Program-made: the position numbers
From: a virus
Taxonomy: Duplodnaviria; Heunggongvirae; Uroviricota; Caudoviricetes
DNA: 45,436 nt
Direction: 5' to 3' (one strand)
IMG/VR virus record: IMGVR_UViG_641736226_000030
Shown here: piece after piece, positions 18,001-21,000 of the stretch
How positions within the stretch are numbered: the stretch's first letter is position 1
Layout of the letters: every line of letters begins with the position of its first letter

Positions 18001-21000
18001 CTGGTGAAATAATCTTTTCCGTTGCCAGTGCTGTATTACCGTTTACATCAACAGATACCAGACCGTTTGTCCCGGCATACAGTACGAATCCCTCCATCGC
18101 CACCATGCTTCTTCGGCTCAGGCATGCCTGCATGGAAGGAATTCTGGAGCCAGAAATTGTGGAAGGCGATACACCACTGAACAGATAAGGCTCCCCCTTT
18201 GTCGCCACCACCAGTGACGTTCCCAGCGGACAGATAGCCACAATATCTTCTGCCGTCGTGTGACGATTCACTTCCGGCCATGCATACGGCAGATACGCTT
18301 CCGAAAACATCACTTCATTACCGGCAAACCCGGCAGCAATACCATTAGCCATCAGGCAAAGACCCGTCATATTCTCCGGTGGCGGCAGGTAATCCCATGT
18401 TGCCAGGGAAGGCCCAAGGTTTTTCGTCGGTATTTTGTCCGTGTAACTGAGCACTGACGCATCCAGTTCAGCCACAAGTAAAAAATCCGCTTCTCCTCCA
18501 CCTGATGCAGAGCGATAAATCCGGCGACGTTTAATATTGGCATTCTGCAATGGCACCGGAGCCAGCGTCAGTTGTACCGCAGTCCCCGGAGTACGGAGTG
18601 TTACCTCCAGAGACGCCGGACCAGGCGGACCTTCTTCACCATAATCTGAGACAAAGGTTTCAGTATAAAACCGGGTTTCGTCATCATTCGGGTTATCGTC
18701 AGAAACATCACCGCCCTGCTGAACAGTACAGACAGGAGCTGTCGTCGGCGCGGGGATCCCCAGACGATACGATGATGTCGGGTGATTCCCGTCCCCTTTT
18801 GTGGCAATAGTCGCATCCGTCACTTTAGGAAAACGCCCGTCAGTGTAGTAAATACGCCCGTGGGGGTCCTGAGCGATCGGACTGCGGATCACATCCACCA
18901 CATCCGGCCATGCAAACCAGAAATCGTCACGGTAATGAAAAATTGTTTTTGGCTTAATTGTGAATGTTTTCTCAACCCCGGATATCTGACGTTCTGGTGT
19001 AATAACACCAAACCGGAAATGGCAGTCCTCCGCCAGTACAGCGGAATGCTCGGGCAGCATGGATGTCACAACGCGCGGCATCATCCCACGCATCGTGGTG
19101 ATATCGATATAGGGCATAGAAATTCCTTTGACTGCTTCAGGCTTAAAAATCAGGGGATTTATGATGGAATTCGCTAAAATCGCGATCGGCATCACTGAAA
19201 CAAAATGCCTTGCATGACATTCTGATGATGACTAAATAACTTCATTGATTATTGCAATTTTCTTTCGGTTTGGGGGAGCATATTGCTCCCCTTTTTTCAC
19301 TGCATTATCATTGCCGCTGTAGCAACGAGAAGCATCACTCCGCACACGCAAGATGTTTCACACTCACACCATACAGTCCATTTTTCGCCATTCCCGTATA
19401 CAGAAAGCTATTCACTGTCTTCGTGTGAATTCCCATTTCACTGGCAAGGCGACATCATGTACCCCTTTCAATTTTTCCAGATTCAGCTGAATAAAACGGC
19501 GTCCCTGATACATACTGCGCATTAAATGGCCCAACTGACTATCACAGATTATTAACCAGGATTCTTTACTATCCAGAATAATCCTGCGATTTTCCGGCAT
19601 AAAAAACTCTTGAACCAGAATTACACGGCATCCTTCACTCCATCGTATTAACATGTTTATTACTTCACTCTCTAATAACCCCCCCCTATACATGACAACA
19701 AAAACCGGAGCCGGGCTCCGGTTTTTGTGAAGCTGTCGGCTATTTCATCCCGCCAATATTTTCCCACGTCCCGTCAGCACGCAGGATTTGCAGCGGTCTT
19801 ACCACACACTGTATCTGCTTTTTATCTGCATCCAGTATCACCACCTGTGTGATTACCCTGTCCTGCTCCGGAATAATGCCATTCTCATCTGACTCCAGAA
19901 TGTCTGCCGGTCCCAGTCGCAGTTGTGCTGTAAGCGACTGCCCGTTTTCACAGTCATCATGCTTTCCGCAACCGCACAGACTCTGCATAAGCTTTCTCAA
20001 AATATTCATGTCATTCTCCTGTTCTGCCTGTATCACTGCCCACTTCATCCAGCCCCTTGACATCCTGCCACGGCCCGTCACCAAACCTGACCTGCAAATG
20101 CTGAAAAAAACCCTGAACCCGTGTGGCATCTTTGGGGTCAAGAAAGGTCAGTCCGGTGATGAGTGCGCCATCTGTATCCGGGAACCAGCCATGGCTGTTT
20201 GTCTCAATAATGTTTCCCGGCCCCAGACGGAACCGTATTTGCGTCTCCCCCGGGTCGCCCTTCGGCCCCTGAGGTCCGGTCGCCCCCACCGGGCCTGCCG
20301 CACCTGTTTCTCCTTTCGGTCCCTGTGGGCCTGCCGGGCCTGCCGCACCGGTATCTCCCTTTGGACCCTGTGGACCTGCATTTCCCGTCAGACCGGTCTC
20401 TCCCCGCTCTCCCCTGTCACCTTTCGGCCCCTGCGGGCCTGCCGGACCAGCATCACCTGCCGGTCCCCGTTCGCCGGTTGCCCCGACAGGGCCGGTGTCA
20501 CCGCGCTCTCCCTTATCACCCTTCGGCCCAGCCGGACCTGCTGGCCCCGTGTCCCCTTTATCTCCTTTCGGACCGGGAACACCACCTCCTGCTGCAGCCT
20601 CTTCTGCCTTTGTTTTCGCTTCATTTGCCACATCCATTGCCGCTTTCACCGCTTTCGGGGTGGCAGCCTTCGTTTCATCATCACTGTCCGTTGCGCTGCT
20701 TAACTGCACAATTCCCTTCTGTGCCGTCGTTGCATCAGCCACATTTGCAGCGCTGCCTGCCGGACCTGGCTCTCCACGAGGTCCCTGAGGTCCGGTCTCT
20801 CCTCGTTCGCCTCTCGGACCTGCAGGACCAGGTTCACCTCGGGGGCCAGTCTCCCCACGCTCACCTCGTGCTCCCATCGGTCCCTGTGGTCCGGCTTCTC
20901 CTCGTTCGCCTTTAGGACCTTGCGGGCCTGCAGGACCTCCCGGATCACCTTTCTCGCCTTTTGGCCCCATATCCCCCTGGTCCCCTTTAGGCCCCCGCTC

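Follow-up and report, generated by a model that had tools for sequence, protein, structure and literature searches.

The stretch of DNA under study (the window, IMG/VR virus record IMGVR_UViG_641736226_000030, 45,436 nt) is an Sp5/933W-type Shiga toxin 2a (Stx2a) prophage of E. coli O157:H7, and the AT-rich gap between its tail-fibre genes and the virion gene ECs1232 gives rise to a hitherto unnamed RNA that is bound by Hfq. This RNA is read from the plus strand, is antisense to the leader of ECs1232 and ends at an intrinsic terminator at 19272-19297, as is evident from published data on the identical sequence. It is an addition to the known class of Hfq-binding or antisense RNAs of prophages. 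Overall, the best explanation, to which we assign a probability of about 0.55, is that the gap is a decayed accessory slot and that the Hfq-bound antisense RNA would restrain ECs1232 in the lysogen. Phages of the Sp5/933W type carry the toxin of haemolytic uraemic syndrome, and most of their late region is without assigned function. An Hfq-bound antisense RNA facing the essential gene ECs1232 would represent a new control point for phage production.

The late genes lie on the minus strand of the window, so that window plus corresponds to the minus strand of the Sakai and EDL933 genomes. Sequence comparison showed that 19100-19760 is 100% identical in Sakai, EDL933 and numerous further O157 genomes. 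The annotated neighbours are the tail-fibre gene ECs1228, then ECs1229, ECs1230 inside the gap, and ECs1232 from ATG 19117. In the Hfq crosslinking and analysis of cDNA (CRAC) data set of strain Sakai, the ECs1231...ECs1232 interval ranks 27th among the Hfq-bound intergenic regions, and in the five samples one strand received 81206, 6030, 70478, 146246 and 3140 reads, the other strand 0 (PMC4104026 Table S1B). We calibrated the strand labels of this table with known RNAs: AsxR, EcOnc11 and EcOnc12, which are encoded on the minus strand, are 'sense'-dominant, and EcOnc10, which is encoded on the plus strand, is 'antisense'-dominant. Therefore, the reads lie on Sakai minus, that is, on window plus. 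With respect to Hfq occupancy, the interval is on a par with the intergenic regions of cyaR and ryhB listed in that table (PMC4104026). Moreover, two chimeras from RNase E crosslinking, ligation and sequencing of hybrids (CLASH) carry AAATGCCTTGCATGACATTCTGATGATGACTAAAT or a shorter version of it, in descending Sakai coordinates (PMC5286369). AAATGCCTTGCATGACATTCTGATGATGACTAAAT is an exact match to plus-strand positions 19203-19237, and the fragment is flagged in the CLASH table as oligoadenylated and as overlapping an Hfq site (PMC5286369). An earlier note, made from the sequence alone, had suggested that a possible RNA ending at the terminator is read from the plus strand, antisense to the tail-gene leader; the one-strand CRAC reads and the CLASH fragment, both from identical strains, bear out this prediction, and the strand-specific transcript is present in the published data.

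The hairpin at the end of this RNA has the features of an intrinsic terminator as found in Hfq-dependent small RNAs (sRNAs). Its stem (19272-19292) comprises nine pairs, six of them G-C, is followed by T6 up to 19297 and folds with -16.2 kcal/mol; the U-rich stretch UUUUCUUUCGGUUU directly precedes it. The strong plus-strand terminator that had been read from the sequence is thus real. When the same hairpin is read on the minus strand, there is no U-run after the stem, and termination is confined to the plus strand. The terminator is near-invariant in the two alleles of the locus, A (the window's) and B. That such an RNA has escaped notice is due to the way in which sRNAs were catalogued. The authors of the catalogue listed only Hfq peaks more than 100 nt away from annotated features, and StxS2 was omitted for that reason (PMC7547250). 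Since the old open reading frames (ORFs) ECs1231 and ECs1232 (with a GTG start at 19195) are both less than 100 nt from the peak, it did not receive an EcOnc name; it was only through this distance-to-ORF filter that the original catalogue missed the RNA.

To locate the 5' end, we made use of the Cappable-seq start sites of EDL933 (PMC10469882 supplement). CP008957 coordinates were converted into window positions by x = 19100 + (1374296 - coordinate), and the conversion was verified on the start codons of both flanking genes. A plausible -10 element can be read at each mapped start site. The only plus-strand start upstream of the 19272-19297 terminator in this listing is at 19010, within ECs1232, and its extended -10 element TGGTGTAAT is invariant in all alleles. 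In the interval 19118-19296 zero plus-strand starts are listed (PMC10469882). Most likely, the RNA is therefore a transcript of approximately 288 nt (19010-19297) that is antisense to the first 108 nt of ECs1232, its ribosome-binding site and its leader, with the 5' end deduced from the start-site map. It is important to note that the directly observed RNA (19203-19237) overlaps only the ECs1232 leader, 86-120 nt upstream of ATG 19117, and that the overlap with the initiation region holds if the 5' end is indeed 19010. Both CLASH reads have their 5' ends at 19203/19204, which suggests that processing yields a 3' species some 95 nt long.

The earlier note had envisaged a much shorter molecule of about 45 nt as possible, produced from TTGCAT-N17-TAAATA at 19219-19247. 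We consider the chance of such an independent RNA of some 45-50 nt, whether it starts from these hexamers or from the overlapping ATGACA-N17-TAACTT (19214-19242), to be slim. The hexamers are present, albeit at 19210-19238 (9 nt off), ATGACA-N17-TAACTT is the top plus-strand site of the region with a score of 9.1, and unusually short prophage sRNAs (51-60 nt) have been described from this strain (PMC4104026). Yet TTGCAT-N17-TAAATA agrees with the consensus at only 3+3 of 12 positions and reaches a weight-matrix score of 5.7, below chance, as the best sites in shuffled versions of the same 376 nt score 8.95 +/- 1.67 on average. The scores of both candidates are thus equal to or below the shuffle mean, and a promoter scan reported neither. 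The CLASH fragments also speak against it: they cover the -35 element, the spacer and most of the -10 element of the proposed promoter, so the RNA must begin upstream of 19203 and be at least about 95 nt long. Likewise, the Cappable-seq listing offers no start for a short RNA, and the hexamers are absent from allele B. A promoter guess of our own, with a -10 element TAAAAT at 19175-19180 and a start near 19187, lacks a usable -35 element and a listed start and was dropped.

From a mechanistic perspective, it is reasonable to propose that the terminator marks the 3' end of an RNA that is made in the lysogen, is bound by Hfq and starts most likely at 19010. Such an RNA would be perfectly complementary to the leader, the ribosome-binding site and the first 36 codons of ECs1232. 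Shorter 3' forms with 5' ends near 19203 would probably result from processing. Pairing over the start region would lower the expression of ECs1232. In addition, transcription itself may interfere: ECs1232 has its own promoter (19241 start), which faces the 19010 antisense promoter across 231 bp, and polymerases from the two promoters could collide. Both effects would restrain ECs1232 in the lysogen and early after induction, outside the period of full late transcription. The presumed target is one of nine newly identified genes that are essential for infectious Sp5 particles (PMC5155283). In PHROGs its family is labelled as internal virion protein. The designation 'IS-disrupted tail gene' in the earlier note is correct as to the insertion sequence (IS), which we could confirm, but loose as to the tail.

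A comparison of related phages sheds light on the history of the locus. Only short-tailed Stx-type phages (Sepvirinae) carry the RNA module. Of 5426 complete E. coli genomes, 267 contain allele A; either allele is present in 356 genomes, and the conserved upstream block is found in 36 IMG/VR contigs. Carriers of allele B include POCJ13, phi367, PhiR5_2 and the O104:H4 strain C227-11. When alleles B and A are compared, 18900-19199 is 97-100% identical and the terminator almost unchanged, whereas 19200-19271 shows only 71-74% identity, and folding indicates that the two alleles adopt different structures upstream of the terminator. The 18900-19199 block lies in a larger mosaic segment, part of which is coding, so that little can be read from its conservation. 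Different phages carry different cargo between the tail fibres and the hairpin: POCJ13 and phi367 have cor, and PhiR5_2 has an eib-like gene together with ORF-156 and ORF-60. The hairpin and the RNA body, however, are always attached to the 5' block of ECs1232 in both alleles, while the cargo changes beside them. In a scan of one genome per species the sole match was a 601-bp contig, NZ_JPLE01000137.1, labelled 'Xanthomonas pisi'. This contig is allele-A Stx-phage sequence over the whole gap, with a degraded end, and almost certainly represents assembly contamination.

In most allele-B phages an intact ORF-60C/phrog_9340 gene is present whose stop codon abuts the hairpin. This arrangement brings to mind a type I toxin-antitoxin system, in which the RNA would be an orphan antitoxin and the encoded membrane protein of 41-60 aa, converging with the RNA, the toxin. 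We give this idea hardly any credence. In P-EibC the gene is followed by eaaC, without hairpin or RNA module, neither PADLOC nor Pfam returned a match, and the RNA body is located downstream of the ORF instead of opposite to it. For the window, the candidate was rejected, as only 13 codons of the toxin gene are left and ORF-60C occurs in P-EibC without the RNA module. As a separate observation, in loci L043-L046 and in allele-B loci such as L009 and L017 the stop codon of the intact gene for the membrane protein (phrog_9340; ...KKRYTAGAMCFMLFVWLG...) falls within the U-tail of the convergent RNA's terminator; the T-run of L043-L046 is broken by a C (TTTCTTT).

Spurious promoters are common in AT-rich DNA that has been acquired horizontally. 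The main rival of the antisense-control model is that we are looking at pervasive transcription of decayed AT-rich DNA, with incidental promoters, a hairpin that is a relic or an insulator against antisense read-through, and Hfq bound to the U-tail without regulatory consequence. The GC content is 0.38-0.45 across 19100-19699 and 0.49-0.70 in the flanks (200-nt windows), which confirms the AT-rich gap noted earlier and speaks for this rival. Furthermore, the five start sites on both strands are crowded into 650 bp and most of them are condition-limited, no plus-strand promoter does better than shuffled sequence, the surrounding genes are pseudogene remnants, and the structure is unconserved between alleles A and B. 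On the other hand, the hairpin and its U-tail have remained almost unchanged while the allele bodies diverged to 71-74% identity, and they have stayed linked to ECs1232 despite the changing cargo; the Hfq occupancy, comparable to that of the cyaR and ryhB regions, likewise argues against this rival. We regard pervasive transcription as rather unlikely.

Several points nevertheless weigh against a regulatory antisense RNA that starts at 19010. The CRAC count spans the whole interval and may include the first 34 nt or so of the transcript that starts at 19319. The 19010 start was recorded in only 3/8 conditions and in a strain other than that of the Hfq data, although the sequence is identical; the conservation of its promoter is uninformative, since it is located inside the 97-100% conserved coding block. 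The five start sites within 650 bp also fit the spurious-promoter pattern of AT-rich DNA. Predicted 5' structures of alleles A and B differ, and two alleles alone yield no covariation support. Finally, the only relevant mutant, an in-frame deletion of ORF69 (ECs1230), leaves the RNA intact.

Apart from its proposed role in cis, the RNA or its 3' part of about 95 nt could act in trans and, together with Hfq, sponge the core sRNA MgrR. One RNase E-CLASH chimera joins 19203-19237 to the seed region of MgrR. The 12-bp duplex (AAUG-C-CUUGCAUG with CAUGCAAG-CAUU) has an energy of -15.1 kcal/mol, a value that 0.85% of shuffles attain (2% when the whole RNA body is considered); this is the energy of the local duplex, full-length duplex prediction being uninformative. 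The duplex overlaps the published MgrR seed at nt 55-63 (PMC8550237), and the motif UUGCAUGA is also the start-codon site of eptB. But the chimera was read just once, in only one of the replicates (count 1, E2 = 0), and the pairing of allele B is no better than that of shuffles (21%). A sponge for MgrR, which would be compatible with antisense control of ECs1232, is thus improbable and no more than a lead. A dual-purpose RNA, gating ECs1232 in cis and sponging MgrR by an Hfq-bound 3' part that mimics the eptB site, must be regarded as quite improbable. MgrR is a PhoPQ-controlled sRNA for lipopolysaccharide modification, and in attaching-and-effacing E. coli it also controls cesT and grlR; if the RNA were dual-purpose, carriage of the common allele-A phage would retune the regulation of the host envelope and of the enterocyte effacement locus. 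A search for trans targets inside the prophage yielded only 10-11-nt matches, in a number expected by chance.

Temperate phages are known to employ cis-antisense RNAs, for example P22 Sar and lambda OOP, and Sar covers the ribosome-binding site of ant. Like these RNAs, the transcript from the gap is terminator-ended and directed against a phage operon, its promoter faces the promoter of its target, and, provided that the 19010 start is correct, the ribosome-binding site of the opposed gene lies within the region it pairs with. Unlike them, it is longer (approximately 288 nt), is associated with Hfq and opposes a virion gene of the late region instead of a gene of the immunity region; the repression is one that we infer. 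The phage anti-sRNAs AsxR and AgvB (RF02703, RF02702; PMC4104026) stem from the same strain, prophage and Hfq-CRAC set, and they share with the new RNA a conserved terminator with a variable upstream part and a possible sponge-like match to a core sRNA. In contrast to them, the RNA is encoded in the late structural region and not at the PR' moron site, and it is probably much longer than 51-60 nt. An Rfam search over 19000-19800 gave no match at gathering thresholds or at E <= 10, and the AsxR and AgvB covariance models, which include a conserved 3' region of about 42 nt, found nothing there even at the latter limit; AsxR itself is at 36857-36909.

HnrS (EcOnc10-12; PMC13502914) is an RNA of 66 nt with three identical copies in the lambdoid prophages Sp9, Sp10 and Sp12, whereas the window element belongs to Sp5-type short-tailed phages and is single-copy in EDL933 and most genomes. 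A 115-nt query hit one place in EDL933 and in most genomes (median 1, highest 3), and all matches are at least 95% identical, so that diverged relatives of the HnrS kind were not among them. HnrS was thus ruled out by copy number and prophage location, without a direct alignment to its sequence. StxS (PMC7547250) is similar in being Hfq-bound, in residing in the same prophage and in having been left off the EcOnc list because of an ORF within 100 nt. Yet StxS is a prematurely terminated PR' transcript and thus on the sense strand, whereas the RNA from the gap is antisense to the late operon. PasB, an sRNA 'embedded in a phage structural operon', was compared by its description, and its wide spread in strains that are not Shiga toxin-producing E. 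coli argues against identity. In phage 2B8, one of three representatives that jointly carry Pas hits, the hairpin is absent from the 6.2-kb stretch around the ORF-156 homologue.

We propose that the gap is a decayed slot for accessory ('moron') genes between the tail-fibre and ECs1232 modules of short-tailed Stx phages. In late-strand order it holds a bidirectional terminator, a wrecked regulator gene of the ORF-156 type and, from a gene for a small membrane protein, the final 13 codons. The hairpin at 19700-19728 has a perfect 14-bp stem with A5 and T5 flanks and folds with -22.2 (+) and -21.7 (-) kcal/mol; being stable on both strands and flanked by an A-run and a T-run, it is a bidirectional terminator, as had been predicted near 19700. 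The remainder is homologous to the P-Eib ORF-156/ORF-60 cassette (AF151674), with the same order and the same position after the tail-fibre genes. Unlike the P-Eib cassette, however, the window copy lacks the first 10 or so codons, about 112 bp internally, which causes a frameshift, and nearly all of orf-60.

The regulator remnant is ECs1230. Numbering along a 93-codon ORF at 19412-19693 (minus strand), phrog_2014 matches residues 14-93 (E 3e-58), phrog_6585 (156 aa) is matched in its N-terminal half, and residues 20-92 share 54% identity with P0013. ATG 19654 (80 aa) is the start in the phrog_2014 model and in the original annotation, whereas RefSeq gives a 62-aa version from 19600. Judged by its sequence, ECs1230 corresponds to the receiver-like N-terminal half of P-Eib ORF-156 proteins and is a regulator pseudogene remnant, from which the first 10 or so residues of the family and the DNA-binding half are missing. 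Transcription from 19660 would yield a nearly leaderless mRNA. The earlier note had noticed the 93-codon ORF and had considered it probably not translated. For that form this is right, and ATG 19693, which comes after the terminator, has no Shine-Dalgarno sequence; what had been overlooked is that the ORF is a regulator gene, truncated and frameshifted, for which a separate start site is mapped at 19660. The run at 19679-19686 has eight C in the window (C8) but seven (C7) in phage F723 and many otherwise identical phages, and many sister phages match only residues 4-93. There, ATG 19693 is therefore out of frame, and the 93-codon ORF is not the unit under selection. The C8/C7 polymorphism among otherwise identical Stx2a phages is situated just upstream of 19660, where the promoter of ECs1230 should be, and could alter the promoter geometry as well as the frame.

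Instead of a single frame of 156-175 aa, as in intact members, the window contains the receiver half at 19412-19654 and the helix-turn-helix at 19335-19454 in another frame. Between the DNA at 19349-19454 and the orf-156 3' ends of P-EibC and PhiR5_2 the identity is 87-90%, and approximately 112 bp are missing between the two orf-156-homologous blocks. As to ORF-60C, the rest of the gene is deleted, and the stop codon of the remnant overlaps the T-run of the plus-strand terminator. The ORF-156 family (156-175 aa) occurs in E. coli only and has no Pfam family. For ECs1230, ORF-156, ORF-60C and the old ECs1231 ORF, sequence searches of Pfam, NCBIfam, PADLOC and PDB gave no match. When intact ORF-156 was modelled with AlphaFold (predicted local distance difference test score 82), the model retrieved the NarL/FixJ-type regulators FixJ, StyR, RcsB and EvgA with E values of 8e-4 to 1e-2. 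The predicted fold is thus NarL/FixJ-like, and the ancestor was probably a LuxR-type regulator of small size. An equation of ORF-156 with PsrA/PsrB proved wrong, as those are AraC/XylS-family proteins. Intact ORF-156 genes (2935-3477 in phage 2B8, NC_049952; 2490-2960 in P-EibC) are located directly after the tail-fibre genes and before cargo encoding Eib adhesins or type III secretion system (T3SS) effectors; in the lambda-like phage 2B8 the gene is found between tail fibres and T3SS effector genes. Intact ORF-156 proteins are candidate prophage regulators of the adjoining cargo.

The second plus-strand start, 19319, is 22 nt past the 19272-19297 terminator, and its -35 element sits in the descending arm of that hairpin. 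The transcript is antisense to ECs1230 and heads for the 19700-19728 terminator. It probably explains the discarded ORF ECs1231, which is part of an RNA unit and not a gene. An in-frame deletion of ORF69 led to several-fold more plaques and lysogens (PMC5155283). Since this deletion (approximately 19424-19645) removes ECs1230 along with most of the 19319-start antisense transcript, while sparing the 19010-19297 RNA, the phenotype is unassignable to either of the two. Three annotations should be corrected: ECs1230 has to be listed as a regulator pseudogene and ECs1231 as belonging to an RNA unit, and in this prophage ECs1232 is broken by IS629. All features are compiled in Table 1.

Table 1. 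Features of the gap and its surroundings (window positions).
Feature	Position	Strand	Basis
Proposed Hfq-bound antisense RNA, ~288 nt	19010..19297	+	Cappable-seq start, CLASH, CRAC, terminator
Antisense start inside ECs1232	19010	+	EDL933 1374386(-), 3/8 conditions (PMC10469882)
Extended -10 TGGTGTAAT, ending 7 nt upstream of the 19010 start	18995..19003	+	Sequence
AAUGCCUUGCAUG, complementary to MgrR nt 59-70, lead only	19204..19217	+	CLASH chimera, duplex energy
TTGCAT-N17-TAAATA hexamers, inside the RNA	19210..19238	+	Unsupported as promoter
Strong intrinsic terminator, GGGGGAGCA TAT TGCTCCCC TTTTTT, U-rich tract upstream	19272..19297	+	Scan and folding
Second plus-strand promoter TTGCTC-N17-TATCAT, start 19319	19283..19319	+	EDL933 1374077(-), 7/8 conditions (PMC10469882)
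ECs1232 start sites 19241 and 19253, extended -10 TGCAATAAT at 19256-19248	19241..19256	-	EDL933 1374155, 1374143 (+) (PMC10469882)
ECs1232 homologue, essential virion gene, truncated by IS629	17657..19117	-	Annotation, PHROGs
ORF-60C/phrog_9340 small membrane protein, last 13 codons and stop, VMLLVATAAMIMQ-stop	19297..19338	-	Translation
Out-of-frame remnant of ORF-156 C-terminal helix-turn-helix, CRLASEMGIHTKTVNSFLYTGMAKNGLYGVSVKHLACAE-stop	19335..19454	-	Three-frame translation
ECs1230 (ORF69), 80 codons	19412..19654	-	PHROG matches, alignment
Non-conserved 13-codon N-terminal extension making the 93-codon ORF, contains C8	19655..19693	-	Sister-phage comparison
ECs1230 start site, 6 nt upstream of ATG 19654	19660	-	EDL933 1373736 (+), 4/8 conditions (PMC10469882)
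Bidirectional intrinsic terminator closing the tail-fibre genes, AAAAACCGGAGCC GGGCTCCGGTTTTT	19700..19728	both	Folding and sequence
ECs1229, fibre C-terminal fragment, 89 aa	19740-20009		Annotation
IS629, 1310 bp, 3-bp target duplication, IS3-type frameshift pseudoknot 16722-16838	16387..17696	+	Sequence

IS629 truncates the ECs1232 homologue after about 473 of 541 codons, at a point 207 nt short of the stop codon. Because an essential gene is broken, the prophage probably makes no infectious phage, but it can probably still make toxin. The transposase genes of IS629 point towards the plus-strand terminator at 19272-19297. Over 17697-22000, all 74 mismatches to Sakai (74/74) fall within the middle and C-terminal part of ECs1232 (17700-18700), and the gap and the tail-fibre genes are identical; the ECs1232 allele is therefore mosaic. 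Rfam matches in the window are AsxR at 36857-36909 (+), STnc100 and three tRNAs. Along with its broken ECs1232, the prophage retains the sRNAs flanking stx2, and the usual stx2-flanking elements, namely AsxR, STnc100 (EcOnc27 region) and the three tRNA genes, are present in 36857-37116 and 38525-38773.

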